A stretch of DNA of 64,000 bases from an uncultured Lentisphaerota bacterium. GTDB taxonomy: Bacteria > Verrucomicrobiota > Kiritimatiellia > RFP12 > UBA1067. The notes beneath the pieces were generated by a model. That model saw nothing but the letters and a program-made list of their open reading frames with translations, searched no databases and had not been told where the DNA came from. Of this stretch, positions 1-16,242 are shown piece by piece; within the stretch, counting starts at the first letter, position 1, and every line of letters starts with the position of its first letter. The stretch is from NCBI GenBank assembly GCA_900320225.1, contig ONRL01000038.1, positions 5,698-69,697 on the forward strand. The letters run 5' to 3'. A program made the position numbers and the translations under genes.

Positions 1-1
1 T

Positions 2-709
2 GACCCTAAAACCTCCCATTCTCCTAAAGCGTCCCAGACACCCTCCCCAAAAGCCGTTCAGCCTCCTCAATCCCCCACGCCCCCCGATCCGACGGAACCC
101 ACGGCTCCCATGTACATGGGAAGACGCGTCGTGGGACTTTCCGCAACCACCAACGCGGACGGGACGGTGGTGGAGCGCATCAGGACAGACGACGGCAAGC
201 TCCACTCGAAGGTGTACTCCGTTGCCGAGCCGGTATTGACAACCCGTACGGATCAGCTGCTTGCGATGGCGGTCGAGGGAGATGGGAACGGCCCGCCGAT
301 GCCTGCCGCGACGAAGGCCGACGAGCAGCAGTTCCTGGAATCGCTCAAGAAGCCCATCGAGATACTCGAGACCGACACTCCGGACGTCCGCGCGCTCAAG
401 GAGAAGGTCATACAGGCGCGCGCGGACATGGTGGAGCTGCTCGCGCAGGGACGCGGCTTCTCGGAGGTTCTTGCGGAACACCAGAAGCTCCAGGCGGAAA
501 ACGCCGCCGTGAGGCGAGACGTGGCGAAAGAACTTCGGTCGCTTATGGATTCCGGCGACACGGCGGCGGCGCTGGAGTACCGCAAGCGCATGAATGCCGC
601 GCTCGAGCAGATGGGCATCGCCCCCCTGACGACCGCGATAACTGAGGAAGAACGCGCGGAGCGCGCAGAACGCAGGCGCGCCAGCCGGAAAGAACGGCTT
701 GGCAAGTAG
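2..709 (+). CDS. Family-A envelope protein, C-terminal part (5' end outside window)
   Basis: Frame is open from nt 2; a Pro-rich stretch (..SPKASQTPSPKAVQPPQSPTPPDPTEPTAP..) precedes listed ORF 110..709. C-terminal half aligns by eye with products of 7042..8058 and 13932..14924 (FLESLKKPIEILETD / FLKSLETPIVIDPED; LEQMGIAPL / LEARGIAPM). Followed by an S270 paralog as in the other cassettes. Confidence 0.7.
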   Translation, partial: DPKTSHSPKASQTPSPKAVQPPQSPTPPDPTEPTAPMYMGRRVVGLSATTNADGTVVERIRTDDGKLHSKVYSVAEPVLTTRTDQLLAMAVEGDGNGPPMPAATKADEQQFLESLKKPIEILETDTPDVRALKEKVIQARADMVELLAQGRGFSEVLAEHQKLQAENAAVRRDVAKELRSLMDSGDTAAALEYRKRMNAALEQMGIAPLTTAITEEERAERAERRRASRKERLGK

Positions 710-787
710 GCGGCGGGCGTTCCGCTGTCGGCAATCCTGGCAGCGCATCCCAACCGCAAGTCAGACATCATAACGGAGAACACGAAC

Positions 788-1648
788 ATGAAGACAAAAA
801 CGATGGTAACGGCGATTGCGCTTTTCTGCGCAATGGCTGCGGAACCTCTAGTAACGATGGCACAATCGGCCCCGCCGCCCCCTCCACCACCCGGCATGAG
901 CGTGGGGGCAAACGCGCCGGACGGAAGCGGAGCCCCGCAGCAGAGGCGACGGAGGCGCAAGATGCTGACGCCCGAACAGCAGATGGAGAAATTCGGTGGA
1001 TTCGTGGAGCCGGCCTACAGCGGCAAGTTCCTCTACTTCATGGATTTGCAGGGACGGATTCCGGCATCGGCCGTCGAGTGGGTGACCGAGCAGGTGCGCA
1101 TCGCCCTCTCGCTCCCAACACGTATCGAGCGGAAAGCAACGGGGACGCAGATCCCCACCACCCTGTCGCCGGACGCAGGCGGCATGATCTCAGTCGTTGA
1201 CATTGATGGCGAGCCGTCGCTTCTCGTCGCCCCCGACAACGGCTGGGCGCGCGTGAACGTCGCCGCGCTTGCGGTGGACGGCGCATCGGCGGAGGTGCTT
1301 GAGGCGCGGGTCAAAAAGGAGTTGTGGCGGGCGTTCGTCATATTGTTCGGAGGCGGCAATTCGCTCAACGACTTTGACGTGATGCGTCCCATACGCACGC
1401 TGAAGGATCTGGATGCCTGCAAAACTCTAGTTTCGTCGCCGGAACCCTTCAACGCGATGCTGAACGGCGCGAAGGCGGCCGGGATCACGCCCGTGCGTCG
1501 CACGACGTATCTCAACGCGGTGCGGCTCGGCTGGGCACCTCCGCCTACGAACGAATACCAGAAAGCCATGTGGGAAAGGGTCAAGGCCGACAAGGAGCGC
1601 GGGCCGACGAACCCGATCACCATCCAGCCGCCGAACGCGAAGAAGTAG
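788..1648 (+). CDS. Secreted protein, family S270 (copy I)
   Basis: 286-aa ORF with signal-peptide-like N-terminus (MKTKTMVTAIALFCAMAAEPLVTMAQS). Paralog of 8055..8864 and 13111..13935 (LLVAPDNGWARVNVAAL; C-terminal KERGPTNPITIQPPNAKK shared with copy III). No catalytic motif recognised. Confidence 0.8.
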   Translation: MKTKTMVTAIALFCAMAAEPLVTMAQSAPPPPPPPGMSVGANAPDGSGAPQQRRRRRKMLTPEQQMEKFGGFVEPAYSGKFLYFMDLQGRIPASAVEWVTEQVRIALSLPTRIERKATGTQIPTTLSPDAGGMISVVDIDGEPSLLVAPDNGWARVNVAALAVDGASAEVLEARVKKELWRAFVILFGGGNSLNDFDVMRPIRTLKDLDACKTLVSSPEPFNAMLNGAKAAGITPVRRTTYLNAVRLGWAPPPTNEYQKAMWERVKADKERGPTNPITIQPPNAKK

Positions 1649-1684
1649 GGCGTGGGCTCCACCTGCACATACCGGCGTCAACGG

Positions 1685-2338
1685 CTACGCCCACGCGGGC
1701 GGGCGGTGGATCGTGCGGCCGTTGGGGAGCGGCACCACGTCCGGCAGCTGGCACCGCGCCGGCAGGTCGCGGGGGATGTGCGCGTAGTAGGAGGCGTGGT
1801 ACATGAGGTCAGATGGCCTGTCGCTTCTTGGATTGTACACCAGAACTGGCTTTTTCAACTCAAAGCGGACAATGTCAATTGGGGCTATGTAGTCGGAGTC
1901 GCCGGTGATGAGTACATAGCAATCCGCATTATTCCTGAATGCGTCGGCAAGAAAGGCGGAGGTCAGATTGACATCAGACCGCTTTTCCTCGAATTTCATT
2001 ACGTGAGCCATTCCGTCTCGCGATTTTCGGCACGACTTGCATTCCTGCGTAACGTGTGGAAGCCATATCTTGTTTCGATTGTAGTAGCCTTCCACGACAC
2101 GGACAAGCGGTTGTGCCGCAAGTGCCTGGAGATAGATGTCCTGTCGTGCGACCGCTTGTGCATCATACGGATATGGACGTATGCGAGCAGTGAAGAAATT
2201 GATGGCAACAACGTCATGTCCGTCGCGAAGCAACCTTCTCACAAGCGTGGCGGGATCAAGCCATCTACAGGACGGGTTTCCATGGAGAAGGCCATAGTAG
2301 AGGTTGAATCCATCGATATATGCAATGGTTTTCTTCAT
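1685..2338 (-). CDS. NYN-domain (LabA-like PIN-fold) putative ribonuclease, copy I
   Basis: ATG at 2338 (listed ORF begins at in-frame TTG 2356). IAYIDGFNLYYG N-terminus and VLITGDSDYIAPI acidic motif are typical of NYN/LabA (PF01936-like) proteins. Paralogs at 9851..10522 and 12415..13074. Visibly AT-richer than flanks. Confidence 0.85.
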   Translation of the reverse strand: MKKTIAYIDGFNLYYGLLHGNPSCRWLDPATLVRRLLRDGHDVVAINFFTARIRPYPYDAQAVARQDIYLQALAAQPLVRVVEGYYNRNKIWLPHVTQECKSCRKSRDGMAHVMKFEEKRSDVNLTSAFLADAFRNNADCYVLITGDSDYIAPIDIVRFELKKPVLVYNPRSDRPSDLMYHASYYAHIPRDLPARCQLPDVVPLPNGRTIHRPPAWA

Positions 2339-2443
2339 CGTATCCAGAAACTGCAAGGGCCTCTCGCCTTTCGGCTTGAGGCCCTGCCCCGCATCGCCAG
2401 AGGCTCACGGTCGGATGTGAACCCATCAAGGGGTTCGTGGGGT

Positions 2444-2472
2444 AGTGTATCAAATCGATGGGTGGTGCGCAA
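2444..2472 (-). promoter_or_regulatory. Putative promoter of NYN copy I (TTGCGC-N17-TACACT on minus strand)
   Basis: The reverse complement reads TTGCGC (2472..2467), a 17-nt spacer, then TACACT (2449..2444). The same architecture occurs upstream of the other NYN copies and of rpmE, smc, the tRNA clusters and the U32 gene. Confidence 0.5.
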
Positions 2473-2490: not shown

Positions 2491-3372
2491 ATGAAATTCA
2501 CTTACACATATCGCTCATCCGACGGCGAGCGGCACACGGCCGAGATCGAGGCCGAGAGCCGCGACGCGGCTTTCGCGAAGGTGCGCAGCGAGCTGGGCAT
2601 CAAGCCGATCAAGGTGGTGGCGGCAGGAGATAATGCGACTGATGAAGGAAGCGGCAAGAGTGCCGCTTCCCCGAGGTGGGGAGTCGTTCCTGTCATCGCT
2701 CTTATCGTTACCATCGCTCTTATCGCTCTGGTCGTGTGGTGGTGGTTGAGCGGTCGCGGGGCGACCGCTCCCGCGCAAGAGCCGGCCGCCTACACGGTGA
2801 ACACGCCCCAAGGACCTGTTACGCTGCGCGTGGCCGAGCCATTGCCCCGCCAGATGATACCGGGCAACCGACAGCGGATTGAGGACGACCGCGACAATGT
2901 CTTCACAAACGCCGCAGAAAGGCTGTTGGCGCGTTTCGCAGAACCGGGGCGGGCTGTTGCCGCACCTAAGGGCGAGCAGCCCACGGAGGCCGATTTTGCG
3001 GCCTGCCTGCGCGAGCCGATCCGCGTGGCGTCGAGCGAACTCACCGAGCACATCGACCTTAAGCGGATCGTGTCGGGCATGAAGCGCGAGATGCGGGCGT
3101 ACATCGCCGGAGGCGGTACCATCGACGGTTATCTCGCCGAGCTGGAGAAGCGCCAGAAGCTGGAGGTTTCGTACCGCGAGCGCGCGGAGCAGAAGCTCAA
3201 CGCCATTTTGAACGGGCAAGATGCCCGTTCTCCCAGCGGGCGAGATTCCTTGAAGGCCGCCTACGCCTACTGGCTCAAGGCCAACGCGCAACTTCAGGCG
3301 ATGGGCATCTACCCGCTCGCCCTGCCAGATACTCTCCGCTCCTACCAGATGAGCCTCGACATCGAGGAATAG
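2491..3372 (+). CDS. Family-B bitopic envelope protein (copy I)
   Basis: Start MKFTYTYRSSDGERHTAEIEAESRDAAFAKVRSELGIKPIKV, then one hydrophobic helix (VVPVIALIVTIALIALVVWWWL) and a C-terminal domain ending ..QAMGIYPLALPDTLRSYQMSLDIEE. Close paralog of 11154..12266 and more distant paralog of 8864..9673. Confidence 0.85.
   Translation: MKFTYTYRSSDGERHTAEIEAESRDAAFAKVRSELGIKPIKVVAAGDNATDEGSGKSAASPRWGVVPVIALIVTIALIALVVWWWLSGRGATAPAQEPAAYTVNTPQGPVTLRVAEPLPRQMIPGNRQRIEDDRDNVFTNAAERLLARFAEPGRAVAAPKGEQPTEADFAACLREPIRVASSELTEHIDLKRIVSGMKREMRAYIAGGGTIDGYLAELEKRQKLEVSYRERAEQKLNAILNGQDARSPSGRDSLKAAYAYWLKANAQLQAMGIYPLALPDTLRSYQMSLDIEE
2647..2670. repeat. H1 hairpin repeat (GGAAGCGGCA-AGAG-TGCCGCTTCC)
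   Basis: Perfect 10-bp inverted repeat with a 4-nt loop followed by CCGAG. Lies inside the family-B copy I coding sequence (encodes ..GSGKSAASPR..). Confidence 0.9.
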
Positions 3373-3983: not shown

Positions 3984-5201
3984 TCAAGCCCCTAAAGCGG
4001 CCAAGGGAACGGCGTAGAAGCCGTTGCCGAAGCGCAACGTCTTGTTGCCGGAATAGAGGACGATTCCGGTAAAAGGCGTCTTGGCGATGTTTTCCGCAAA
4101 CCACTTGAGATGGCGGAAGTCATCCGTAGAAGCCTGTCCCGCCTTGACCTCAACGCCGAGCAATGCGCCGTCCTTTCGCTCGACGATGAAATCGATTTCG
4201 CGCTTGCGGTTGTCCCTGTAGTGCGAGAGGCTGTACCCGCCTTCAGCCTCGGAAATCGCGGCCAGTTGCTGATACACCCATGTCTCGACGAGTTTGCCAC
4301 TCCTGTTCTCGTCCATGTACACGTCGTCCTCGTTCCACCCAAGGACGTTTGCCGCGAGCGCGGAATCCGTTGCAATCCACTTTTCGCGTTTTCCGATCAT
4401 GTCGTAGTCGCTCTTCGTCCACGCGGACACGCTGTCGAAAATGTAAAGGGCCTTCATTGCCTCCATGTAGTTCTGCGCCGTCACCTTCGATATCGCAGCC
4501 TTTGACGCCAGTTCCTCCATTGCGAAGAATTGCGCCGTGTGGGCAAGAAGCCACAATGCGACGGAACGCAGTTCAGGAAGCTTGCGGATTTCCGTCACGT
4601 CCTTGACATCTTTCTCAAGAAGATCGTCCAGATAGACTTCGAACCACTCGCTCCTGGCGTCTGGCGAGTAGGACTGGATTTCCGGGTAGCCGCCGCGAAA
4701 AGCCGCGTGGATCAGGTCCCTTCGTGAAAAGTCACCGTAAAAGGAGTCGAAGTCCCCCGCAAAGGCCCGGCGAAGGAAAAACGGCGGATGGCCGTAGATT
4801 TCCCCTAGGGACAGCGTCCGAAGCCGCACTCTGCCGAGGCGACCGGCGAGCGAGTCCTTGACGGCCTTTGCAAACCGGAGATTCGCGCTTCCAGTGAGGA
4901 GATACTGGCCCGGCGACTGGTCCTTGTCCACGACCATTTTGATCGAATCAAGGACGTCGGGCACCTTTTGCACCTCATCTATGACAATCGACTCGCCATT
5001 GGCATGCTGCACAAATCCGTTCGGGTCGCTTTGGGCGACACCCCGCACCAACTTGTCGTCGAACGTATATCTCCTCGCATGGGGCAAGTCAACCATTCCG
5101 GCAAGGGTCGTCTTGCCGGACTGCCTCGCACCGGTGAGATTCACGCCACGGCGAACCTTCATCATGGCGCTTAACCGAGATGTCTGCCATCGTTCAATCA
5201 T
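3984..5201 (-). CDS. AAA-family ATPase (AAA_14 + DUF4143-type)
   Basis: 405 aa. Walker A in ..LTGARQSGKTTLAG.. and Walker B-like ..ESIVIDEVQKVPD... The overall layout is typical of the widespread ATP-binding DUF4143 family. Confidence 0.85.
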   Translation of the reverse strand: MIERWQTSRLSAMMKVRRGVNLTGARQSGKTTLAGMVDLPHARRYTFDDKLVRGVAQSDPNGFVQHANGESIVIDEVQKVPDVLDSIKMVVDKDQSPGQYLLTGSANLRFAKAVKDSLAGRLGRVRLRTLSLGEIYGHPPFFLRRAFAGDFDSFYGDFSRRDLIHAAFRGGYPEIQSYSPDARSEWFEVYLDDLLEKDVKDVTEIRKLPELRSVALWLLAHTAQFFAMEELASKAAISKVTAQNYMEAMKALYIFDSVSAWTKSDYDMIGKREKWIATDSALAANVLGWNEDDVYMDENRSGKLVETWVYQQLAAISEAEGGYSLSHYRDNRKREIDFIVERKDGALLGVEVKAGQASTDDFRHLKWFAENIAKTPFTGIVLYSGNKTLRFGNGFYAVPLAALGA

Positions 5202-5307: not shown

Positions 5308-5654
5308 GCGACATCTCAATTAGAACATCATCTCGCGAATCGGTCTCAATCGCCACTAAAAATGCCCCAAAAATCAGACTTGTTTTACCCCCCAGTTTTG
5401 TATTCATGTCCATACATCAGGTGGATGTCCCCTGTGTACGCGACATCACTTAAATAGCAATAATCGAAGTTGCCGGCAATGTAAATGACATTTTGCGAGG
5501 ATTGGATTGCAAATGAGATTACGGCGCGGAACAACTATTTCCTCTCTCTGCCCCCCAGAGCAAAAAACTTGGGAAGACCGGTTGTGAAACTTGGACTTCG
5601 GGAAGTGCCCGAAGCAAAGAAGAACGCCGGTTGGAACAGGAAAGGAAAAGAAAA

Positions 5655-6365
5655 ATGAAGAAACTTATGTTTGTCGCGGCCGTTGCCGCAGCCTTCGCCG
5701 CATCGGCGGACGGCCTTCAGTCCTCCAACACGGTGGGCTATGGCCAGAACGGCCTTCGGTTTGGCTACAGCCTTGTGACTCCTCAGTTTACGGGTATCGG
5801 TGGCACTGCGCTTTCTTTGGACGCATTGCAAGGCGTTGGTTCAGATGCTTCTGATAATGTGAACTTGGCAATGGTTGACGAATACGGCGCTGCGATTACC
5901 ACGTATACTTGGAATGACTGGGCTGCTGCCGAACCGTGCTGGGTTGATGACTCGTACGCACCAGTGTCGGATGTTACTGTCTCTGCCGGTCAGGCCTTCT
6001 GGACGGGCGGCTCTTCAAGTGATCAGTTGATCCGGTCTGCGGGTGAAGTTTGCTTCCAGGATGTTGTCGTTTCTCTCCGCTTTGGTTATACCTTGGTCGG
6101 TAATCCATTCCCTGTTTCACTTGCATTGCAGGATATCGTTGCAGGCGGTGATGAGGCGTCCGACAATGTTACCATGGCCACAATTGACGAATACGGCGCC
6201 GCAATCACCACATACACTTGGAATGATTGGGCCGCAGCTGAGCCGTGCTGGGTAGATGACTCCTATGCGCCTGTTACGGATGTGACGTTTGCGCCTGGCG
6301 AGGGCCTCTGGACGGGTGGCTCAAATAATTCTCAGTTTGTGCGGTTCCCTGCTCCGGAACTGTAA
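5655..6365 (+). CDS. Secreted protein with internal tandem domain duplication (DUP family, copy II)
   Basis: Start MKKLMFVAAVAAAFAASA (signal peptide). Two ~95-aa repeats both contain ..DEYGAAITTYTWNDWAAAEPCWVDDSYAPV... Paralog of 15581..16242. Confidence 0.8.
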   Translation: MKKLMFVAAVAAAFAASADGLQSSNTVGYGQNGLRFGYSLVTPQFTGIGGTALSLDALQGVGSDASDNVNLAMVDEYGAAITTYTWNDWAAAEPCWVDDSYAPVSDVTVSAGQAFWTGGSSSDQLIRSAGEVCFQDVVVSLRFGYTLVGNPFPVSLALQDIVAGGDEASDNVTMATIDEYGAAITTYTWNDWAAAEPCWVDDSYAPVTDVTFAPGEGLWTGGSNNSQFVRFPAPEL

Positions 6366-6413: not shown

Positions 6414-6887
6414 ATGAAAATGAAAAAAGTAGTTATTGTGTGTGCGTTGGCGTTTATGGCCTTTGCCGCGAACGCTGCGTCTGTGAAGTGGAATGCCGCC
6501 AACATCTATGGTAGTGATGGTACGACGAAGTTTTCTGGTGTCGTAACTCTCTATTGCACAGAGTTGTCTGACTTCAAGTCAGAAGTAACAGCGTCTAATG
6601 GTGCTGTTCCGGCGACTACCGTAGCGTTGCCAGATTCGGCAGGCGGAACGACGAAGACCTTCTACTTCGTGTTTACCGACAATGGCAAGACCTTCACATC
6701 CGCAGAAAAATCTGTTGCCATTCCTGCGACGGCATCAGCTGGTGTCGCGAATTTTGGCAACATGCAATCGGCAACGCAGAATGCCTCAAACTGGAGCGGC
6801 GGCGGCGGTGACATTCCCGAACCGACGAGCGGTCTCCTGCTCCTCGTGGGTGCGGGCATGCTCGCGTTGCGCCGTAAGCAGAAGTAA
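6414..6887 (+). CDS. PEP-CTERM sorting-domain protein (copy II)
   Basis: Signal peptide MKMKKVVIVCALAFMAFAANA. The C-terminus IPEPTSGLLLLVGAGMLALRRKQK has the PEP motif, a TM helix and a basic tail. Paralog of 15062..15532. Confidence 0.9.
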   Translation: MKMKKVVIVCALAFMAFAANAASVKWNAANIYGSDGTTKFSGVVTLYCTELSDFKSEVTASNGAVPATTVALPDSAGGTTKTFYFVFTDNGKTFTSAEKSVAIPATASAGVANFGNMQSATQNASNWSGGGGDIPEPTSGLLLLVGAGMLALRRKQK

Positions 6888-6908: not shown

Positions 6909-6945
6909 AACGCCCGACCGCTTGTGCGGGCGGGCGTTTTCCTTT
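6909..6945 (+). terminator. Hairpin plus T-run between the PEP-CTERM gene and the family-A gene
   Basis: AACGCCCG..CGGGCGTT stem with inner CCGC/GCGG pairing, followed by TTTTCCTTT. An analogous element occupies the same position in cassette III. Confidence 0.5.
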
Positions 6946-7041
6946 GGGATATTCATTTGTCGTCTGTCTTTTGTCCTCTGTCCCGCCTGGGGACGGACAG
7001 AAGACGAAGGGCAGAAGATAGAGGAAGACTGGAAGCCCCCA

Positions 7042-8058
7042 ATGACATTCACAGTAACATACCGCGACAAGGACGGCGCATTACGCGAGGAGTGTGTCGA
7101 GGCCGCGAATCGAGCCGAGTGCGTGGCCGCGTGCAAAGAGCGCGGGATTGTGCCGACGGGCATCCGCGAGGGGCGAACTTCTGTTCGTCCGAGAAGCGGC
7201 AGCGCCGCTTCTCGGAGCGCGCAGCAGATCGGAAAGACCAAGCTTATCGCGGCCGTCGTGATTGCTGCCGTGACGTGTGGCATTGGCATTGCGTGGTGGC
7301 TGTGGCCACGAGCCGAACCCCAGCAGGAGGTTCGCCAGCAGCCCAAGAAAGCTGTGACGCCTCCTCCCGTAAAACGGCAGCCCAAGGTCTTAGAACAACC
7401 CTCTCGACCAGCGGAAACGAATGTCGCGCCAACGCCAGAACCAGTCAAGATCGATCCCAATGCACGGCCTGAAAAGGTGGGGGAGACGGTCAACGGCTAC
7501 ATCAAGTTGCCGTCCGGGAGGCTTCATAAGGTGAGAGGGGTCGTGACGAACGACGTCGCGCAGGCCACGCGCGGGAAATATGCCATTTTCGAGCACAACT
7601 GCGAGAATGAAATCGCGTGTTACCTCTCGCTCAAGCCCGGCGACGCGATCTTCGGGACGATGAAGTACAATGGAAGATTCAAGAAAGAATTCCTCAAGTC
7701 GCTGGAAACGCCAATTGTCATAGATCCAGAAGACTCAGACGAGGTCAAGGAGCTGAAACGGAATGTCCGCGACGCCAAGATCCAACTGAAGACTGCGATG
7801 GACAACGGCGAGGACATCGAGAAGATCATGGCGGACACGCGTCGGGAACTGCAGGACCTTGCACGTTACAAGATGGATCTCACGCGGCATCTGCATGACA
7901 TGCGCCATGACGGGAAACTTACGACCGTCGAGGATTTGCAGGACGCAGTCGACGCCGCCAACAAGATGCTGGAGGCCAGAGGAATCGCCCCGATGAAATT
8001 CGGGCCGCTCGTCCGCCAGAAGATGTTGATGGAACTTGAAAAGGAACAGAAGAAATGA
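7042..8058 (+). CDS. Family-A bitopic envelope protein (copy II)
   Basis: Start chosen at MTFTVTYRDKDGALREECVEAANRAECVAACKERGIVPTGI by homology to 13932..14924. One TM helix (LIAAVVIAAVTCGIGIAWWLW), a Pro-rich linker and a C-terminal domain. ATGA overlap with the next gene. Confidence 0.8.
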   Translation: MTFTVTYRDKDGALREECVEAANRAECVAACKERGIVPTGIREGRTSVRPRSGSAASRSAQQIGKTKLIAAVVIAAVTCGIGIAWWLWPRAEPQQEVRQQPKKAVTPPPVKRQPKVLEQPSRPAETNVAPTPEPVKIDPNARPEKVGETVNGYIKLPSGRLHKVRGVVTNDVAQATRGKYAIFEHNCENEIACYLSLKPGDAIFGTMKYNGRFKKEFLKSLETPIVIDPEDSDEVKELKRNVRDAKIQLKTAMDNGEDIEKIMADTRRELQDLARYKMDLTRHLHDMRHDGKLTTVEDLQDAVDAANKMLEARGIAPMKFGPLVRQKMLMELEKEQKK

Positions 8059-8864
8059 AGCGCTTGACTTTGGTTGCGGCCCTTTTAGCCGTGGCATTTG
8101 TGGCGGCGGTCGAGCCGCCGCCGTTCGACATCCACAAGAAGGCGGTCACTCCTGAGGAGAAGGCTCAGCGCAAGGCCTATTTCGAGAAACGCTTCCTCGA
8201 ACACACCGGCGGCAGGATTCTGCGGCCCGGCACGCGAAAGGGGACGGTCTACTACATCAACTGCCAGAAGCGCGCGCAGGCGGATTGGCTGGAGGAGTCC
8301 CGCGATTACATGGCCGGATATTCCAAGTTCAACGTGGCAATCAAAGACGGCGAGTTTGACCTCGCCGCCCCGAAGGTGGAGGGCAATGCCTCGTTGTTCG
8401 TGGTGGATGACGAAAAGTTGCCGCCGATCCTCGTGGCACCGGAGAGTCGCTGGGCAATCGTGAACGTCGCGCCATTGGCGAAGGATGCGAAGCCCGCCTT
8501 CTTCGAGGCTCGGGTCAAGAAGGCGCTGACGCGAGGTTTCTGTTTTCTCTGCGGAGCCAGCAACTCGCAGTTTCCACGTGCGCTGACAGGTGGCGTGACG
8601 GGGCCTGCTGACCTCGACAAGTTCCCCGACTACCGTCTCCCGGTTGACATCGAGAAACGCATGGCTTCATACATGGAACCCTTCGGCGTGACGCCGGCGG
8701 TGATGGCGACATACCGGCAGGCCTGCAAAGAGGGGTGGGCGCCCGCACCCGCCAATGACTACCAGAAGCAGGTTGCCGAAGCCATCGCGAAGGAGAAAGC
8801 CGAGACCCTGAAGGGACCGAAGTCTCCACGAAAGATTGTATTCGACCCCAAGAAGGGTGAGTAG
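8055..8864 (+). CDS. Secreted protein, family S270 (copy II)
   Basis: 269 aa with signal peptide MKRLTLVAALLAVAFVAA. Shares ILVAPESRWAIVNVAPL and ARVKKALTRGF with copies I and III. Confidence 0.8.
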   Translation: MKRLTLVAALLAVAFVAAVEPPPFDIHKKAVTPEEKAQRKAYFEKRFLEHTGGRILRPGTRKGTVYYINCQKRAQADWLEESRDYMAGYSKFNVAIKDGEFDLAAPKVEGNASLFVVDDEKLPPILVAPESRWAIVNVAPLAKDAKPAFFEARVKKALTRGFCFLCGASNSQFPRALTGGVTGPADLDKFPDYRLPVDIEKRMASYMEPFGVTPAVMATYRQACKEGWAPAPANDYQKQVAEAIAKEKAETLKGPKSPRKIVFDPKKGE

Positions 8865-9673
8865 TGAGATTCGTCTACGAGTACCGGACGAGCGACAACG
8901 TTCGGCATGACGGCGAAATCGCGGCGACGGACCGCGAAGCTGCATTCCGGGCCTTGAAGGAAATCGGAATCAGGCCTGGGCGTCTGGAAACGGCGCCGGG
9001 CTTCTTTAACAAGTACCTTGGGAATTGGAAGCTTCGGTTGGCGGCAATTGGCTTCTTCGCCGTGACGGCCGTGGGGGTGTCCCTTCCCTTTGTCAGCTCT
9101 TACTTTGTCGGCACGCGCGAGGAACAGGCCGTTCCGCCTGCTCCAGTCACGGAGACGTCCCTCTATGTTGATGAAAACGGCTTTGCGAAGCCGATCGAGC
9201 GTCGTCAGATATGGGGCGATGAAGCCGTGATCTCTGCCGCCGCCCGACAAAACTGGCGCGTGATCTTTTCTAATCCGGGGGAGCGGCTTCTTGCGCTCTT
9301 CGCCGAGCCAGGCATGAAACTTTCGATGTTGCCTCGTCTGCCGGACTCACTCCAGGAAGACATGGAGAAAGCCCTGCGCACGCGACTGACCATTTCACCT
9401 GACGAACTGGACGAGTATCGGCAGATGAAGTGCATAGTCGAGGGCATGAAAGCGGAACTCCGCGACTACCTTGCCGCAGGCGGAAACTTGGCGGGATACA
9501 TCAAACGACTTCAGGCGAGGCAGAACGAGGAAGTTGCATTTCTTGAGAAGGCGCGTGTGGAATTGGAAAAGCAGATCGAATCCGGTGCCGATCCAGTTAC
9601 TGCCTGGCAGGAGATGAACAAGCGCATCCGGGAACAGGGGCTTCCCGCGTTGCCGATGCCAGGGCTCAACTGA
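8864..9673 (+). CDS. Family-B-like bitopic envelope protein (copy II, divergent)
   Basis: GTG start overlaps the TAG of the upstream gene by 1 nt. MRFVYEYRTSDNVRHDGEIAATDREAAFRALKEIGIRPGRLE head, a TM helix, and a C-terminal region aligning with family B (ERLLALFAEPG.., ..LRDYLAAGGNLAGYIKRLQARQ..). Confidence 0.8.
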   Translation: MRFVYEYRTSDNVRHDGEIAATDREAAFRALKEIGIRPGRLETAPGFFNKYLGNWKLRLAAIGFFAVTAVGVSLPFVSSYFVGTREEQAVPPAPVTETSLYVDENGFAKPIERRQIWGDEAVISAAARQNWRVIFSNPGERLLALFAEPGMKLSMLPRLPDSLQEDMEKALRTRLTISPDELDEYRQMKCIVEGMKAELRDYLAAGGNLAGYIKRLQARQNEEVAFLEKARVELEKQIESGADPVTAWQEMNKRIREQGLPALPMPGLN

Positions 9674-9850: not shown

Positions 9851-10522
9851 TCAAGGCGTCTGGGACGGTGGCATCCATGCCACCGGACATTGGATGGTTC
9901 TGCCGTCTGCTGTCACGAACGAATCGGGCAGACGGCAGCCTGCGGCAAAGCCCTGAGGGATGTTACGGTAAAAGGTTGCGTAGCGGCGAAGTTCGTTGCA
10001 GATGCTCATCTGCGGGTTGAAGACAAGGACAGGAACCCCTATATGGTAACGGACGGTCTTCACTATGGGTGCGAGATCGGTGTCGCCAGAGATGAGAACA
10101 AGGCTGTCGGCGCGTCGTTCGTAAGCATCGCGCAGCATTGCATCAGCGATGTTTACATCTGTCATCTTTTCCGTGATACGAAGCACCTTGATGCGACCGT
10201 CGCTCCGTCTTTTGCCGCAGGACGTACAGGGTTCACGGACAGGGGTGAGAAGTTCGGCCTGTTCGCGATAGCGGCCTTCGATGATTTCGACGAGAGGACG
10301 ATTGGCAAGCGCTTTGAGATATTGTTCCTGCCGTTGGGCGTGGTGCTGGTTCGGGGTTTTGTCGATTACGCGAGACGTGAAGTACTTGATGGCGACGATA
10401 ACATGGTCTGGTTTGAGAAGTTTGGAGGAGAAGGTCTCAAGATCAAGCCATTTGTTGTCGGTACCGCGAAGTTGTCCATAGTAGAGGTTACTGGCATCGA
10501 TGTAGATGATTGTGTTTTTCAT
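9851..10522 (-). CDS. NYN-domain putative ribonuclease, copy II
   Basis: Start taken at MKNTIIYIDASNLYYG (10522). VLISGDTDLAPIVKTVRYHIGVPVLVFNP motif present. The listed ORF extends upstream through a duplicated, decayed NYN 5' fragment. Confidence 0.85.
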   Translation of the reverse strand: MKNTIIYIDASNLYYGQLRGTDNKWLDLETFSSKLLKPDHVIVAIKYFTSRVIDKTPNQHHAQRQEQYLKALANRPLVEIIEGRYREQAELLTPVREPCTSCGKRRSDGRIKVLRITEKMTDVNIADAMLRDAYERRADSLVLISGDTDLAPIVKTVRYHIGVPVLVFNPQMSICNELRRYATFYRNIPQGFAAGCRLPDSFVTADGRTIQCPVAWMPPSQTP

Positions 10523-11153: not shown

Positions 11154-12266
11154 TTACTCGTCGATGTCGAGGGACATCTGGTAGGAGCGGAGGGCGTCGG
11201 GCAGGGCGAGCGGGTAGATGCCCATCGCCTGAAGCTGCGCGTTGGCTTTCAGCCAGTAGGCGTAGGCGGCCTTCAGGGAATCTCGCCCACTGGGAGAACG
11301 GGTATCTTTCTCGTTCAACATGTCGTTGAGCTTCTGCTCCGCGCGCTCGCGGTACGAAACCTCCAGCTTCTGGCGCTTCTCCAGCTCGGCGAGATACTGC
11401 TCAACCGTGCCGCCTCCGGCGATGTAGGCCCGCAGTTCGCGCTTCATGCCGGTGACGATGCGTTTGAGGTCAACCACCTCCGTGAAGTCCGTCGAGGCGA
11501 TGCGGATCGGCTCGCGCAGGGCGGCCTCGAAATCGGCCGGTATCGGCCGCGCCGCATGTGAAGCGGCGAGAGCGCCGCTTCCCCGAAGGGTACCGACGTT
11601 GGATGAAGCGCCGCCTCCCCGAGGGGAAGCCGACTCTCGGGGAAGCGACACTCCTGTCGCTTCACCCGGCGCGAGGGTCGCCGGTGGTGTCTCAAGAGTC
11701 GCGGGCGGCTGCCGCCCTGGCTCGGCATAGCGCGCGAGCCACCTCTCGGCCGCGAATTTGAACACGCCGTTGGTCGGTTGGGATTTCGCCTCGCTGGAAG
11801 AAAGGGCATCGCGCCCGTTCATCGCTCCTTCAATTCTTCGCCTGTCGCCCGGTATCATCTGGCGGGGTAATGGCTCGGCCACGCGCAGTGTCACCGGCCC
11901 CTGCGGGGTCGTGACCGTGATCGGCTGGTCGGAGTTGGCTGCGGGCAATTCGCCGTTCGGGCGTCGCATCCACCACACCACGCCGCCGAGGACGGCGGCG
12001 AAAAGAACAACGGCCGCGACGAGGAGATTGCGCTTCTTGAATGAAGCGGCGAGAGCGCCGCTTCCCCGAGGGGAGCCGCTATTCGGGGAAGCGGCACTCT
12101 TGCCGCTTCCTTCATCAGTCGCATTATCTCCTGCCGCCACCACCTTGATCGGCTTGATGCCAAGCTCGGTCCGTATCTTGGCAAACGCCGCGTCGCGGCT
12201 CTCGGCCTCGATCTCGGCCGTGTGCCGCTCACCATCGGACGAGCGGTATGTGTAGGTGAACTTCAT
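11154..12266 (-). CDS. Family-B bitopic envelope protein (copy III, expanded by hairpin repeats)
   Basis: Start at MKFTYTYRSSDGERHTAEIEAESRDAAFAKIRTELGIKPIKV. Ends ..QAMGIYPLALPDALRSYQMSLDIDE. Longer than copy I because of segments containing four H1 repeats. Confidence 0.85.
   Translation of the reverse strand: MKFTYTYRSSDGERHTAEIEAESRDAAFAKIRTELGIKPIKVVAAGDNATDEGSGKSAASPNSGSPRGSGALAASFKKRNLLVAAVVLFAAVLGGVVWWMRRPNGELPAANSDQPITVTTPQGPVTLRVAEPLPRQMIPGDRRRIEGAMNGRDALSSSEAKSQPTNGVFKFAAERWLARYAEPGRQPPATLETPPATLAPGEATGVSLPRESASPRGGGASSNVGTLRGSGALAASHAARPIPADFEAALREPIRIASTDFTEVVDLKRIVTGMKRELRAYIAGGGTVEQYLAELEKRQKLEVSYRERAEQKLNDMLNEKDTRSPSGRDSLKAAYAYWLKANAQLQAMGIYPLALPDALRSYQMSLDIDE
11560..11581. 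repeat. H1 hairpin repeat
   Basis: GAAGCGGCG-AGAG-CGCCGCTTC followed by CCCGAAG, inside the family-B copy III CDS. Confidence 0.85.
11642..11663. repeat. H1-like hairpin repeat (variant arms)
   Basis: GAAGCGACA-CTCC-TGTCGCTTC preceded by CTCGGG, inside the family-B copy III CDS. Confidence 0.75.
12043..12064. repeat. H1 hairpin repeat
   Basis: GAAGCGGCG-AGAG-CGCCGCTTC followed by CCCGAGG, inside the family-B copy III CDS. Confidence 0.85.
12087..12110. repeat. H1 hairpin repeat (opposite orientation)
   Basis: GGAAGCGGCA-CTCT-TGCCGCTTCC preceded by TTCGGG. It is the orthologous copy of the repeat at 2647..2670. Confidence 0.9.
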
Positions 12267-12313: not shown

Positions 12314-12414
12314 ACAACCGAACCCCTTGATGGGTTGCTAACCACCCGCTGAGCTACGGCAATGCGGTGCAGAGCCGGGCGTAAGTCCGGCTCTTGCCTT
12401 TTCGGGAAACAGTT

Positions 12415-13074
12415 ATGCAAAAGAAACAGACAATCTTCTACATAGATGGCTTCAACCTTTATCATGGTCTGTTGAAAGATACGCCCTCTCGCCAGTGGCT
12501 CGATCTTGAGCGTTTCGCAACATCCCTGCTCCCGCGTCTGGAAGAACATGATGTCGTCGCCATCAAATACTTCACGGCCCGAATCAAGTATAATCCCGCA
12601 GACCCGCAAGCCGCATTCAACCAAGACCGCTATCTTGATGTCCTTGGGACTTTCCCCAAGATCAAGATCATCGAAGGCTTCTACAAACGATTTCGGGTCA
12701 AGCTTCCTTTCGCGGCAGAACCATGCAAGAGCTGCGATAAGATGCCCTACGGTCTCGTATACCGCACGGTCGAGAAACGTTCTGACGTAAACCTTGCCAC
12801 TGAAATGATGGCCGATGTCATTCGCCGTGCCGCCGATACATTTGTCGTCATAAGCGGAGACGTTGATTTCGCCGCACCGCTTTGCTTCATCAGACATGAG
12901 GCTAAGTTGAGAACACTGGTCTTTAATCCACATGAAAAAGTGTGTGAGGAGCTTCGTCGCTTCACATCCTACTACAGGAACATCCCTCGCGACCTGCCGA
13001 CGCGGTGCCAGCTGCCGGACGTGGTGCCGCTTCCCAACGGCCGCACGATCCACCGCCCGCCCGCGTGGGCGTAG
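12415..13074 (+). CDS. NYN-domain putative ribonuclease, copy III
   Basis: ATG at 12415 (MQKKQTIFYIDGFNLYHG). VVISGDVDFAAPLCFIRHEAKLRTLVFNP motif present. The C-terminal ..RCQLPDVVPLPNGRTIHRPPAWA is identical to copy I. Confidence 0.85.
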   Translation: MQKKQTIFYIDGFNLYHGLLKDTPSRQWLDLERFATSLLPRLEEHDVVAIKYFTARIKYNPADPQAAFNQDRYLDVLGTFPKIKIIEGFYKRFRVKLPFAAEPCKSCDKMPYGLVYRTVEKRSDVNLATEMMADVIRRAADTFVVISGDVDFAAPLCFIRHEAKLRTLVFNPHEKVCEELRRFTSYYRNIPRDLPTRCQLPDVVPLPNGRTIHRPPAWA

Positions 13075-13110: not shown

Positions 13111-13935
13111 CTACTTCTTCGTGTTTGGCGGCGGAATCGTGATCGGGTTCGTCGGCCCGCGCTCCTTGTCGGCGCGTACCTCATCCCATATCTTCTGCTG
13201 AATGGCATCCTTGGGCTTTTCCGCCCAGCCTTCCTTGCATGCCTGCCGGTAAGAGACATAGATGGCAGGTGTGACGCCGATTGGCTCTAGGTACGGTGCC
13301 ATGCGCGCCACAACGTCCATCGAGAGGCGTTCGTCCGAGATGTGGTCAAGGTCTTCTGGCTTGTACATGCCACTGGTGAGCGAGCCGGGGAAGTTCGAAC
13401 TCATCGCGCCGCACAGGAGGGCGAACCCCCGCGACATCTCCTTGAGGACTCGTGCCTTGAAAAAGGCGGGGGCGGATCCCCTACCCGTCTTCAACGGAGC
13501 AACGTTCAGGACAGTCCACCTGTTCTCGGGGGCCGCCACAAGGGAAGGGAATGTGGGATCGTCAATAATGTAAAGAGAGGCATTCCCCTCAATTTTCGGG
13601 GACGGGAATGAGAACGTGCCGTCCCTGAGCGTGATCTGCAGGCGGGTTTCCTTTTTGAGGTACTCAATTGATCGCTCTAGGACTTCCTTCTCGGCGGCCT
13701 TCTGACAATTGACGATGGTAATCTCACCTTTCAGCGAGTCTTTCCGGACAAGCGTTCCTCCGGTACGCTCGTATTTCCGCTTCATCAGCCACTCCATACG
13801 GATCTTGCGCTCGGCCTCGTTGGTCGGCTTCGTGCGTGGATCGTACGGCTTCGCCTCGTCCGCCACCGCGCCGGAGGCCAAGCAGAATGCCACCGCGCAG
13901 AGCATCCATTTCCCGACTGTCATGTATCCGTTCAT
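13111..13935 (-). CDS. Secreted protein, family S270 (copy III)
   Basis: 274 aa with a signal peptide (MLCAVAFCLASGAVA). Contains SLVAAPENRWTVLNVAPL and ends KERGPTNPITIPPPNTKK. Confidence 0.8.
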   Translation of the reverse strand: MNGYMTVGKWMLCAVAFCLASGAVADEAKPYDPRTKPTNEAERKIRMEWLMKRKYERTGGTLVRKDSLKGEITIVNCQKAAEKEVLERSIEYLKKETRLQITLRDGTFSFPSPKIEGNASLYIIDDPTFPSLVAAPENRWTVLNVAPLKTGRGSAPAFFKARVLKEMSRGFALLCGAMSSNFPGSLTSGMYKPEDLDHISDERLSMDVVARMAPYLEPIGVTPAIYVSYRQACKEGWAEKPKDAIQQKIWDEVRADKERGPTNPITIPPPNTKK

Positions 13936-14924
13936 TTCTTGTTGTTCCTTTCTTCTTTTTCCTTCATGAGGAGTTCCATGCGTTTCCTGGTGATGGGACC
14001 GACCTTGAGCGGCGCGATTCCCTTTTCAGCCAGCAGGATGTTGGCCGCCTTGATGAAGTCCTCCACATCGTCGTCCGTCACGCCTTCCTTCTGCCGGTAT
14101 TCACTGAGCTCGTTCTGGAGGAGACGCTTGAAATTGTGCAATTCCTGCATTTCACGCCGGGTATCGAGCATGATCTGCTCGATGTCCTCGCCGCGGTCCA
14201 GCGCCGCCTTCAAGTTGATCTTGGTGTCACGGACGGCTTTCTTCAGTTCACGGGCGTATTCGTCGTCTTCGGGGCCGATGACGATCGGGGTCTCAAGGGA
14301 CTTGAGGAACTCCGCCTTGAAGCTCCCGTTGTAGCGAGGATCGCCCACCAACCCTTCTCCGGGTGTCATCGTGAGGAAGCACGCAATCTCGTTCTCACAG
14401 TGATGCTCGAATATCTCGTACTTGGAGACGCTGGTGCGCGACACGTCATTTGTCACCTCGCCCCTGATCCGGTGCAGGCGTCCGGACGGCAACTTGATGT
14501 AGCCGTTGACGATTTCGCCCACCTTTTCGGGACGGGCGTTCGGGTCAACCTTCACAGGCTTGGGTTCGACGGGTTTTGCCACGACGTTGGTTTCTGCCGG
14601 TTTCGGGCGCGGCTTCGGTGTGGCCGCCGGCTTCGGAGCGGCTTGTTTCTTTTGCACGGGTTTGGGAGCGGGAGTTGGCTGTGGCTTGGGCGACAGGAAG
14701 AACCATGCCACGCAGGCAATTATGACAACGACGGCAGCGGCGACGGCGCCCTTTATCCACGCGGGCCTGCGTGATGGAGACGCGACGTGCCCGCCCTCTG
14801 TGACGGAACGCGGGACGATCCCGCGCGCGCGGCACGAGGCAACAGCCGCCGCGCGGTCGGCGGCATCAATGACCTCTGTCGCAGGAGATCCGTCTTGCCT
14901 TCGGTATGTTACAGTAAACTTCAT
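13932..14924 (-). CDS. Family-A bitopic envelope protein (copy III)
   Basis: MKFTVTYRRQDGSPATEVIDAADRAAAVASCRARGIVPRSV head, TM helix (AVAAAVVVIIACVAWFFL) and a Pro/Lys-rich linker. The C-terminal domain is collinear with 7042..8058. ATGA overlap with the S270 gene. Confidence 0.85.
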   Translation of the reverse strand: MKFTVTYRRQDGSPATEVIDAADRAAAVASCRARGIVPRSVTEGGHVASPSRRPAWIKGAVAAAVVVIIACVAWFFLSPKPQPTPAPKPVQKKQAAPKPAATPKPRPKPAETNVVAKPVEPKPVKVDPNARPEKVGEIVNGYIKLPSGRLHRIRGEVTNDVSRTSVSKYEIFEHHCENEIACFLTMTPGEGLVGDPRYNGSFKAEFLKSLETPIVIGPEDDEYARELKKAVRDTKINLKAALDRGEDIEQIMLDTRREMQELHNFKRLLQNELSEYRQKEGVTDDDVEDFIKAANILLAEKGIAPLKVGPITRKRMELLMKEKEERNNKK

Positions 14925-14966
14925 GGCAATCCTCCCGTCTGAAAACGAGACTCTTGGGCGGTTGTG

Positions 14967-14997
14967 AAAAAGCCCACCCGCAATGTGCGGGCGGGCC
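14967..14997 (-). terminator. Hairpin plus T-run between the PEP-CTERM gene and the family-A gene (cassette III)
   Basis: The minus strand reads GCCCGCCCGCA-CATT-GCGGGTGGGC followed by TTTTT. Same relative position as 6909..6945. Confidence 0.5.
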
Positions 14998-15061
14998 TTT
15001 CTCTTAGTGGAACACGCAACTCGCGCATTCCAGAGCGGGTTGGCAACCCGTTCTATTAGAC

Positions 15062-15532
15062 TTACTTCTGCTTGCGGCGCAACGCGAGCATGCCAGCGCC
15101 CACGAGGAGTAGAAGCCCGCTCGTCGGCTCGGGAATGTCACCGCCGCCCCAGTTGCTGGCGTTCTGCGTAGCGGAGGCCATGTTGCCAAAACCAATGGCT
15201 GCAACATCAGAAGCCTGGGCAATTGCACTAACAGACTGCGAGGTGAATGTTTTGCCGTTATCCGTAATGGTAAAGTAGAAGTTATACTCATTACCCGCTA
15301 CAAATGCAGCATCTGAGAATTCAGTATTTGCAGCCTTAACCGCACCACTAGCGGCAGTAGCAGCTGCCGAGAATGACGCGACCTCAGCGCAATACAAAGT
15401 GACCGCACCAGACCACTTCGTTGTACCGTCGGAGCCATAGATGTTGGCAGCCGACCACTTAAAGGACGCCGCATTGGCTACTGTTGCAACCAAGGCAAGC
15501 GCCATAACAATCATTACTTTTTTCATTTTCAT
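15062..15532 (-). CDS. PEP-CTERM sorting-domain protein (copy III)
   Basis: Start MKMKKVMIVMALALVATVANA. C-terminus IPEPTSGLLLLVGAGMLALRRKQK. Shares SFKWSAANIYGSDGTTKWSGAVTLYC with copy II. Confidence 0.9.
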   Translation of the reverse strand: MKMKKVMIVMALALVATVANAASFKWSAANIYGSDGTTKWSGAVTLYCAEVASFSAAATAASGAVKAANTEFSDAAFVAGNEYNFYFTITDNGKTFTSQSVSAIAQASDVAAIGFGNMASATQNASNWGGGDIPEPTSGLLLLVGAGMLALRRKQK

Positions 15533-15580
15533 TTTCCTTTTTTTCCTATGTGTCACACAATGTGACACATTTGAAATTGT

Positions 15581-16242
15581 TTAGAGTTCCGGAGCTGGGA
15601 AACGAAGTGACTGGCTCGTGCTCTTGCCATACACCCAAAGGCCCTGGCCCGGCGCGAAGGAGACACCTTCAACCTTTTCAAAATCCTCATCCGCCCAGCA
15701 AGGTTCATCTGCAGTCCAGTCATTCCATGTATAGGTGCAACCGTCAACGGTACGTCCAGCAGCATCAAGGACATCCCCCTCGGGGATGATGTCATCAAGA
15801 TCAAGCGCAACAGGGAACGGATTACCCGTCGGGGTACCACCATTACGAAGCGTCACGATCACATCAGCGATACCAACCTGCCCACAGGAACGCAGACCTT
15901 GCGTGGTGGTTTTGCCATACACCCAAAGACCTTGGCCCGGCGCGAATGAGACGCCTTCAACTTTTTCAAAATCCTCATCCGCCCAGCAAGGTTCATCTGC
16001 AGTCCAGTCATTCCATGTATAGGTGCAACCGTCAACGGTACGTCCAGCAGCATCAAGGACATCGGGACAAGCGAATCCAACGAAATCGTGTTACCAGACA
16101 TCGGCGCGAACTGCGGAGTGACCATCGTGGCTCCGTTACGCAGATCACTCTGACCATAGCCGACCGTGTTGGCGGATTCAATGCCTTCGCCGAACGCGGC
16201 GAATCCTGCGGCAACCGCCGCTGCAAACATGAGTTTCTTCAT
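15581..16242 (-). pseudogene. DUP-family secreted protein (copy III), frameshifted
   Basis: ORF 15859..16242 (MKKLMFAAAVAAGFAAFG.. signal peptide) loses homology after ..SLDSLVP near 16061..16067. The homologous sequence (DVLDAAGRTVDGCTYTWNDWTADEPCW..) continues in another frame into ORF 15581..15922. Confidence 0.6.

Follow-up and report, generated by a model that had tools for sequence, protein, structure and literature searches.

Three copies of one set of genes occupy the first 16 kb of the analyzed stretch of the contig ONRL01000038.1 (64,000 nt; hereinafter, the window), and the question raised by this locus is what such a repeated set does. An earlier note described the copies as cassettes I–III of five families of envelope proteins, designated here as D, P, A, S (S270 in that note) and B, and regarded them as a multi-copy cell-surface or secretion-accessory module. 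The analysis presented here leads to a tentative answer, to which we assign a probability of roughly one third (0.35): D and P may be abundant variable surface proteins, and the products of A, S and B may serve as their non-catalytic escort, possibly coupled to a type II secretion system (T2SS) or to type IV pili (T4P).

Gene Order and Distribution of the Cassette

A search with S2 and A2 (the S and A proteins of cassette II) in a collection of 5.8 billion proteins revealed more than 400 relatives of each. Few of the relatives had a source name, and those names were "hypothetical protein". An exhaustive profile search among 1.84 billion representative proteins showed that the S family comprises 1158 clusters at 50% identity, including 709 clusters at E ≤ 1e-30; the best 150 clusters listed were all single-domain proteins of roughly 190–295 aa. 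A scan of species-representative genomes gave 160 relatives in 75 distinct loci, which originated mostly from metagenome-assembled genomes of the animal gut or rumen and were labelled mainly as Kiritimatiellae/Kiritimatiellia. Some loci were labelled as Lentisphaerae or Verrucomicrobia, two as Akkermansia and a few as Firmicutes or archaea, the last two labels being probably binning errors. An S relative was encoded in only one locus among 2.9 million viral contigs, and a phage origin of the cassette was therefore rejected.

Hidden Markov models of the families were built and all open reading frames (ORFs) of the loci were classified with them. The gene order shared by the copies in the window, D>P>A>S>B, was found to be nearly universal in these 75 independent loci, with 42 complete cassettes present in 22 of them. 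The co-occurrence check suggested in the earlier note thus revealed a set of families that recurs mostly in gut or rumen Kiritimatiellia, and the description of a multi-copy all-envelope module agrees with the conservation of its order across many genomes. The cassettes are usually arranged in tail-to-tail pairs (D P A S B / B S A P D), which form arrays; five cassettes within 20 kb were found on one contig (L001). A–S–B trios without D–P were detected as well (L005-7, L012, L016 and others), as were D–P pairs located alone or in tandem (L010, L029, L051, L067 and L069). In distant variants with 30–33% identity to S2 (L068, L075, L078, L079 and L082), the families are still linked and their orientation is rearranged.

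Two Units Separated by a Hairpin

A generic terminator scan was positive at 47 of the 72 P->A junctions analyzed. Elsewhere in the cassette, the scan gave no positive among 87 D->P or 68 S->B junctions and three among 108 A->S junctions; in shuffled sequences the count was approximately zero. Conservation of the hairpin extends to the sequence of its stem, GCCCG(T)CCG - loop - CGGGCGGGC. A search of 850 kb for the motif GCCCGNCCG-N3-10-CGGGNGGGC in its exact form gave 60 sites, and 56 of these were located no more than 150 nt downstream of a P-family stop codon on the same strand; the remaining four were at contig ends. The window contains only two such sites, with 0 expected, and both are P–A junctions.

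Downstream of the hairpin the genes are closely packed, with median gaps of −4 nt between A and S and −1 nt between S and B. The overlaps described previously were confirmed, namely ATGA for A/S at 8055–8058 and 13932–13935 and TAGTG for S2/B2 at 8862–8866. Sigma-70-like promoters lie 130–150 nt upstream of several D genes, whose ribosome-binding site is directly preceded by a stem-loop. Judged from the sequence, the cassette therefore consists of two units: D–P, with its own predicted promoter and an end at a putative terminator or attenuator, and the downstream coupled genes A–S–B. Such a layout is typical of operons that begin with the gene of an abundant structural subunit and continue with low-abundance assembly genes.

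Long 5' leaders of ~130–150 nt were observed in L010, L023, L024, L029, L032, L038, L041 and other loci, and leader regions were also observed in the window at 5546–5654 and 16243–16310. The stem-loop of the D leaders abuts the AAGGAAACGAAAA ribosome-binding region, and sub-groups of leaders share motifs such as GGTCTGGGTATCG or GCAAATTGTAGAGTGGTTCTGCAC. The leaders may be mRNA-stabilising or regulatory. The leader motif CTCTGC5CAGAGC was found in 5 of 82 upstream regions, all belonging to close relatives, and is therefore not a general feature of the cassette. No invertible promoter or flanking inverted repeats were found upstream of D2 and D3, and no tRNA or Rfam element was found in the first 1–20 kb.

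Predicted Properties of the Cassette Proteins

No sequence-level match to S was found in Pfam or in the PDB using sequence and profile searches. An AlphaFold2 model of S, based on an alignment of 36 sequences, had a mean predicted local distance difference test (pLDDT) score of 88.5. Foldseek superposed this model on the archaemetzincin (M54) structure 2x7m (E 4.5e-7, template modelling score 0.64, target-normalised), then on 3zvs, 4axq and 3lmc, and on the matrix metalloproteinases MMP-7, MMP-3 and MMP-1 at E of about 1e-3. The order of secondary-structure elements in the model is like that of metzincins, namely five strands followed by a long helix. The zinc motif of these enzymes is HEXXHXXGXXH, and M54 proteins also contain CX4CXMX17CXXC (PMC3427221). 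Unlike them, S has no HExxH in any of the 405 family members, no Cys4 pattern in the alignment and no conserved Met-turn, since no column at positions 166–259 contains Met in more than 40% of sequences. In the 405 sequences, the helix after the fifth strand instead carries K156 (86%), E157 (81%), R160 (98%), C166 (64%) and G167 (97%), giving the family motif KExxR; S2 itself reads K156-A157-x-x-R160. The Lys, Arg and Cys residues appear to be spaced like the three zinc-binding His residues, a register set by spacing and not by superposition. The absence of HExxH and the presence of Lys and Arg in its place allow us to regard S as a predicted metzincin-fold pseudo-protease that would be non-catalytic. 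The statement of the earlier note that no catalytic motif is recognisable in the cassette still holds, with a protease fold now assigned to one of its products.

The families A and B were found to be homologous over their full length (A2 versus B3, blastp E 4e-16; hhalign probability 99.9, E 2e-31, ~300 columns), and the five families described previously therefore reduce to four superfamilies. Each protein contains one transmembrane (TM) segment preceded by basic residues. Homologues of A and B have precomputed matches to PF28597 (T2SSF_N), and a profile of the N-terminal 46 aa matched M. xanthus PilC (3jc8, residues 18–60) with E 1.2e-5. Designer pentatricopeptide repeat (PPR) proteins stood at the top of the same profile search and were rejected as sums of many 13-residue repeat matches; the PilC match, unlike these, is one continuous stretch and was kept. 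A weak match to TIGR02120 (positions 1–57, E 0.09) was obtained for the A/B family with NCBIfam. In the AlphaFold2 model of A2, residues 1–43 form a beta-beta-alpha-beta N-domain (pLDDT 94), followed by a TM helix (65–87), a disordered Pro-rich linker and a periplasmic helical domain at ~145–338, with pLDDT mostly 80–96 and a dip at 166–176. The only Foldseek neighbours of A2 were small proteins matching the N-domain, among them YkzG and T7 Gp2, at non-significant values (best E 0.27). Note that YkzG and T7 Gp2 have also been reported as structural homologues of the PulF N-domain (PMC10790770).

Other searches with A and B were less productive. Weak matches of A2 to BamI and GltJ in NCBIfam fell on the TM and Pro-rich region and were treated as compositional. 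A single-sequence PDB search with the N-terminus of B3 returned designed proteins only, and the alignment of A had no sequence or profile match in the PDB. The PF28597 and PilC matches, together with the model, indicate that A and B carry the N-domain of PilC/GspF. They differ from GspF/PilC in having one TM segment and not three, in lacking the rest of these proteins (Cyto1/Cyto2; no PF00482 match in Pfam) and in possessing a periplasmic helical domain of their own.

The P proteins match PEP-CTERM models (TIGR02595, E 3.9e-6; PF07589, E 1.8e-4), and a full tail, consisting of xPEPT, a hydrophobic stretch and a basic end, is present in 90 of 94 members. No such tail (0 of 93 members) and no other anchor was found in D, which contains an internal duplication (hhalign E 3e-19). 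The ends of D are conserved, with the mature N-terminus ESAN(T/I/V)VGY and the C-terminus (R/K)FPAxEL, and its core is variable. According to hhalign, D is unrelated to P, and neither is homologous to S, A or B; a match between P and S was confined to the signal peptide. Hydrophobicity and motif checks revealed signal-like N-termini on D, P and S, one TM segment in A and B and the PEP-CTERM tail on P, in agreement with the previous view that all products are targeted to the envelope. Scans of Pfam, NCBIfam, PADLOC and PHROGs gave nothing significant for D, A, S and B. Thus, the profile searches suggested earlier were informative only for the PEP-CTERM tail of P and, in A/B, for the N-domain (PF28597).

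Divergence and Co-Evolution of the Cassettes

The median identity between 32 non-redundant complete cassettes was 23% for D, 24% for A, 32% for P, 34% for S and 44% for B, and adjacent cassettes were as divergent as distant ones. S2 orthologues in other species showed 62–89% identity; the paralogues therefore predate speciation and represent a stable repertoire of types. A comparison of identity matrices revealed a correlation between A and S (rho 0.74 overall and 0.76 within loci) and, within loci, between P and A (rho 0.72) and P and S (rho 0.69). B, the most conserved family, was uncorrelated with all the others. On the basis of these matrices, A and S co-evolve and B does not. Convergent B–B pairs were only modestly homogenised, with a median identity of 43%.

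The copies within the window follow the same pattern. The identity found by blastp was 50% for A2/A3; 43%, 30% and 33% for S2/S3, S1/S2 and S1/S3; 60%, 30% and 26% for B1/B3, B1/B2 and B2/B3; 66% for P2/P3; and 62% across the first 58 aa for D2/D3. Judged by these values of 26–66%, which greatly exceed chance similarity, the copies are true paralogues, although old and divergent; the gene order common to the 75 loci corroborates this. The A and S bodies of cassettes I and III are only 35–50% identical at the nucleotide level, versus 81–96% in the patches 1563–1762, 2448–2647 and 3117–3316. This mosaic pattern indicates recombination or gene conversion.

Cassettes and Surrounding Genes in the Window

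The features of the cassettes are listed in Table 1. Every ORF listed in the earlier note was found at its coordinates. That note did not contain the division of the cassette into two units at a terminator, the PilC/GspF N-domain, the pseudo-protease character predicted for S and the frameshift in D3, nor did it contain the sixth gene of each cassette (NYN, on the opposite strand) and the embedded ATPase and toxin–antitoxin genes.

Table 1. Coordinates of cassettes I–III and associated features in the window.
Feature	Position	Strand	Basis
A1, C-terminal part (cassette I)	2..709	+	ORF, blastp; full gene of 348 aa in identical contigs
S1 (cassette I), predicted secreted pseudo-metzincin	788..1648	+	ORF, blastp
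NYN-domain gene N1, S–B slot of cassette I	1685..2356	-	HEC-09 matched by paralogues N2 and N3
B1 (cassette I), predicted bitopic membrane protein with PilC/GspF-type N-domain	2491..3372	+	PF28597 (faint)
AAA_14/DUF4143 ATPase (PADLOC PDC-S01), outside the cassette	3984..5201	-	Pfam, PADLOC
Leader motif CTCTGCCCCCCAGAGCAAAAAA 5' of D2, lineage-specific, common to D3	5546..5567	+	
D2, predicted secreted, two internal repeats of ~100 aa; mature N-terminus SSNTVGY, C-terminus RFPAPEL	5655..6365	+	
P2, predicted secreted, PEP-CTERM anchor	6414..6887	+	
Hairpin GCCCGACCG-loop-CGGGCGGGC and T-run, intrinsic-terminator-like, P2/A2 gap	6909..6946	+	
A2: predicted PilC/GspF-type N-domain (aa 1–43), TM 65–87, Pro-rich linker, periplasmic helical domain	7042..8058	+	
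S2: signal peptide and predicted metzincin-fold domain without zinc site (K156-A157-x-x-R160)	8055..8864	+	
B2, A paralogue, linker shorter than in A	8864..9673	+	
NYN/HEC-09 gene N2, between convergent cassettes II and III	9851..10522	-	
B3 (cassette III)	11154..12266	-	
NYN/HEC-09 gene N3, S–B slot of cassette III	12394..13074	+	
S3 (cassette III)	13111..13935	-	
A3 (cassette III), ATGA-coupled to S3	13932..14924	-	
Hairpin GCCCGCCCGCA-CAT-TGCGGGTGGGC and TTTTT, P3/A3 gap	14964..14996	-	
P3 (cassette III), PEP-CTERM protein	15062..15532	-	
D3 (cassette III), frameshifted, probable pseudogene; internal repeats 91% identical	15581..16242	-	
Leader motif 5' of D3, identical to the motif at 5546–5567	16289..16310	-	

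Over the shared range (1–11648), contigs from five other European Nucleotide Archive metagenome samples show 100% identity to the window and a contig from a sixth shows 99.8% (L084–L090, with L084 from sample ERZ919349); the organism, or at least the island, is therefore of wide occurrence in the habitat that was sampled. The designation of cassette I as partial is correct for the window and does not apply to the gene set, since the 100% identical contigs carry D1 (268 aa), P1 (174 aa) and full-length A1 (348 aa) upstream. Note that the sequence upstream of cassette I varies between strains, and in one variant (L087, 1715–2291) a ParE/Phd pair and an ATPase_2 gene were observed there.

The outer coordinates given for D3 as a single gene are right; inside them, a frameshift near 16067 leaves two ORFs, 15859–16242 and 15581–15922. 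The same frameshift was found in the independent assembly L084 (17500–18260), and D3, as read from both sequences, is probably a pseudogene. L084 differs from the window by in-frame indels of 24 and 9 nt located precisely where each internal repeat begins, which may be due to real repeat-mediated variation or to assembly collapse.

An NYN gene accompanies each cassette in the window. N2 and N3 matched the PADLOC model HEC-09 (PDLC04163) over their full length, with E 2.3e-42 and 6.4e-39, and the NYN domain (PF01936) was detected in these genes with E 1e-11; the ORF of N2 runs to 10723, and the homologous part and the L084 gene call lead to a protein of 223 aa. By their sequence matches, the NYN genes are assigned to the candidate defence family HEC-09, with a putative role in defence. 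The slot after S on the opposite strand is also used in L038, L043, L050, L071 and L080. In cassettes I and III the flanks of this slot are 83–96% identical and the NYN bodies only 50–57%, which suggests that NYN alleles may have been swapped through recombination in the conserved flanks.

The ATPase gene between cassettes I and II matched PDC-S01 in PADLOC with E 2e-119. A Phd/YefM antitoxin gene (3499–3762, + strand) lies in the same interval, and no full-length toxin gene is evident next to it within the window. Flanking ORFs within 4 kb of the cassettes in the 75 loci (124 ORFs) matched 60 families; the commonest type was the AAA_14/DUF4143 ATPase (16 of 124), and phage-type integrases (5) and DUF3800 (4) were also present. 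Between the convergent cassettes II and III, the 40 C-terminal residues (11006–11125) of the ORF 10538–11149 (+ strand) match the N-terminus of AbiD/abortive-infection proteins (PADLOC E 3.5e-7, PHROG E 7.5e-8), and this ORF is probably a gene remnant.

An integrase-like gene (16419–17426) adjoins cassette III; it matched phrog_1 (E 6e-7) and did not match the NCBIfam integron integrase model. A gene similar to repetitive extragenic palindrome (REP)-associated tyrosine transposases (RAYT) was observed at 17595–18725 on the + strand (NF047646, E 7e-15). The 23-nt perfect palindrome CAAAACAGGTC[T/A]GACCTGTTTTG occurs at 11126–11148, 17430–17452, 18663–18685 and 18712–18734, with a half-site at 3959–3972; half-sites gave 9 matches versus 0.01 expected. 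The copies flank the transposase gene and also immediately follow B3, the integrase-like gene and the gene of the PDC-S01 ATPase; together with the transposase they look like a REP/RAYT system.

The GC content is 54–60% in the first 20 kb, ~65–70% over most of the rest and 55.5% in the last 2 kb, and the integrase-like and RAYT genes are situated at the GC boundary. The step may reflect an island or a composition typical of the family. Outside the first 20 kb, housekeeping genes and genes of glycan degradation were found; a GH43+SGNH fusion, a GH129-like protein and a GtaA-type six-hairpin glycosidase (20833–22500, 41410–43734 and 59346–61265) fit polysaccharide-degrading gut Kiritimatiellia.

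Possible Function and Alternative Explanations

According to the reading that we prefer, the first unit, with its own promoter, long leader and hairpin terminator, would yield two abundant exported proteins. P would be tethered at the cell surface by its PEP-CTERM tail, and this would require an exosortase encoded at another site; D, an untethered tandem-repeat protein, would dock on P. Expression of the translationally coupled second unit would be weak or would depend on read-through, and the products of this unit would assemble, at the inner membrane and in the periplasm, into an escort complex devoid of catalytic activity. A and B would each consist of a cytoplasmic PilC/GspF-type N-domain, an inner-membrane span and a periplasmic helical domain. 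S would be periplasmic, and its protease-derived cleft might hold an extended peptide without cutting it: with the zinc-binding His residues replaced, peptide binding would be possible and cleavage would not. A type-specific A/S pair would then recognise its cognate D/P cargo in the periplasm, B would act as a more generic partner, and the PilC-type N-domains would couple the cargo to a T2SS or type IV filament machine encoded elsewhere for transport across the outer membrane. The many old, divergent cassettes of a genome could represent a repertoire of surface specificities for adhesion, ligand binding or phage-receptor variation. The full version, in which the cassette is an unrecognised envelope-sorting accessory system whose N-domain adaptors A/B and non-catalytic S hand P and D over to the T2SS or type IV filament machine, is conceivable and at present doubtful.

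What the analysis establishes is the anatomy of the cassettes together with their homologies, synteny, terminator and co-evolution; the physical contacts, the route of export and the biological role are inferred. Several observations weigh against this reading. The N-domain of the PulF type is peripheral, non-essential in the T2SS and without a known partner (PMC10790770), and the periplasmic domain of A2 had no significant structural relative in Foldseek (best E 0.27). Genes for an exosortase, T2SS or T4P are absent from the window and from the 25 most recurrent of the 60 flanking families, so that a coupling to such machinery is purely inferred. The same holds for the link to exosortase-type sorting made in the earlier note: the PEP-CTERM tag of P stands as its sole support, with no exosortase in the window. 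In addition, the decoupled evolution of B is left unexplained by an escort, and the co-evolution of the other families can partly reflect the shared descent of whole cassettes.

It could be assumed that the exported cargo is S itself, with A as its membrane-tethered, type-specific chaperone and D–P as a separate adjacent surface unit; the CpaA/CpaB and LipA/LipB pairs of the Acinetobacter T2SS would be the parallel. A and S are coupled by ATGA and show the strongest co-evolution, the A–S–B trio occurs without D–P in several loci, and cargo-specific chaperones are known for the T2SS: LipB and CpaB of Acinetobacter are single-pass membrane proteins that are encoded beside their cognate cargo and needed for its export (PMC4713064). 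The likeness, by which A and S are also coupled and co-evolving, is one of analogy only, and no homology to CpaB or LipB is apparent. To our knowledge, chaperones of this type have not been described as carrying a PilC-type N-domain. D–P precedes A–S–B in the large majority of loci, P and D co-vary with A and S within loci, and a dead protease has no evident role as a final exported product, which makes S an unlikely cargo. A trans-envelope sensor, in which D/P would bind a ligand, S, A and B would relay the signal and the N-domains would modulate the T4P or T2SS motor, agrees with the fact that the sole cytoplasmic parts are two ~45-aa N-domains homologous to a peripheral, regulatory-looking domain of PilC/GspF; many divergent paralogues would also suit many ligands. 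However, the cassette contains no known signalling domain, no pilus genes are located nearby, and the strong terminator and high-expression features of D–P suit structural proteins better than receptors, so that a sensor seems quite improbable.

The surroundings of the cassettes raise another question, namely whether these are phage-interaction islands with variable receptors or shields, or an envelope-level anti-phage system that acts with the NYN/HEC-09, PDC-S01 and abortive-infection or toxin–antitoxin genes. The NYN/HEC-09 gene that each cassette of the window has and that recurs in this slot in other loci, the frequent PDC-S01 ATPases and the integrases among the flanking ORFs, the AbiD fragment, the Phd/ParE genes and the lower GC content (54–60% versus 65–70%) all point in this direction. 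On the other hand, neither PADLOC or PHROG matches nor a nuclease or NTPase domain were found in the cassette proteins, a defence gene adjoins only a minority of the cassettes in other loci, and neighbouring paralogues are old (A 23%, D 26% identity) and not rapidly switching, with no invertible promoter upstream of D2 and D3; we therefore place little credence in this explanation. The hairpin could also be a recombination site rather than a terminator, D–P with the hairpin being a mobile integron-like cassette. Its sequence is conserved although the proteins are only ~25–35% identical, D–P pairs occur alone and in tandem, an integrase-like gene abuts cassette III, integrases recur near cassettes, and the cassettes are mosaic, with patches of 83–96% identity. 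But the hairpin is short (22–30 nt), GC-rich and followed by a T-run, as in an intrinsic terminator; U-G wobble would make it more stable in the sense RNA, as deduced from the sequences; no attC-like core was found, and most loci have no recombinase nearby. Recombination of this kind is thus very improbable. As for a mere local segmental duplication of functionally unrelated genes, the alternative named in the earlier note, it is refuted and hardly credible: the same order in 75 loci of different species-representative genomes shows that the set is not purely a local duplication, linkage is kept in rearranged variants, the genes are translationally coupled and the families co-evolve.

Comparison with Known Systems and Significance

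P has the canonical tail of the PEP-CTERM/exosortase system (xPEPT, hydrophobic helix and basic end), but no exosortase, exopolysaccharide (EPS) locus or PrsK/PrsR-type regulator is located nearby, and D, A, S and B match no NCBIfam model associated with PEP-CTERM. In fimbrial operons (pap, fim), an attenuating terminator follows the gene of the major subunit and assembly genes are expressed downstream at a lower level. The order D–P / hairpin / A–S–B is the same; however, no homology to a chaperone, usher or pilin was found in the cassette, and polymerisation of D or P is not implied. The GlyGly-CTERM/rhombosortase cargo VesB combines a tripartite C-terminal tag with T2SS-dependent surface localisation (PMC6219818, PMC13393428) and may serve, by analogy, as a precedent for a tag linked to parts of a secretion machine, although the tag and the sorting enzyme are different and T2SS dependence is only proposed for the cassette. 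Of the genes in the window, those of the NYN family match a known model, HEC-09.

No described system with the composition of the cassette was found in Pfam, NCBIfam, PADLOC, PHROGs, PDB sequence and literature searches, as the earlier note had supposed, and literature searches on Kiritimatiellae with PEP-CTERM or exosortase and on T2SSF_N revealed nothing relevant. The combination of an exosortase-type sorting tag, the orphan PilC/GspF N-domain on small single-pass proteins and a predicted metal-less metzincin fold has not previously been seen. From its sequence features, we regard the cassette as representing a type of system that has not been described before, with a putative functional role.

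Kiritimatiellia are widespread and largely uncultured in the rumen and gut, and the cassette is among their large gene families. If the escort model is true, the partner of the GspF/PilC N-domain and the way in which PEP-CTERM proteins cross the outer membrane become testable; this N-domain would thereby gain its first function and first partner, and exosortase substrates would gain their first export route, across an uncultured clade of gut bacteria. Should the model prove wrong, the repertoire of old, divergent and recombining cassettes would still probably shape the surface that these bacteria show to hosts, substrates and phages.

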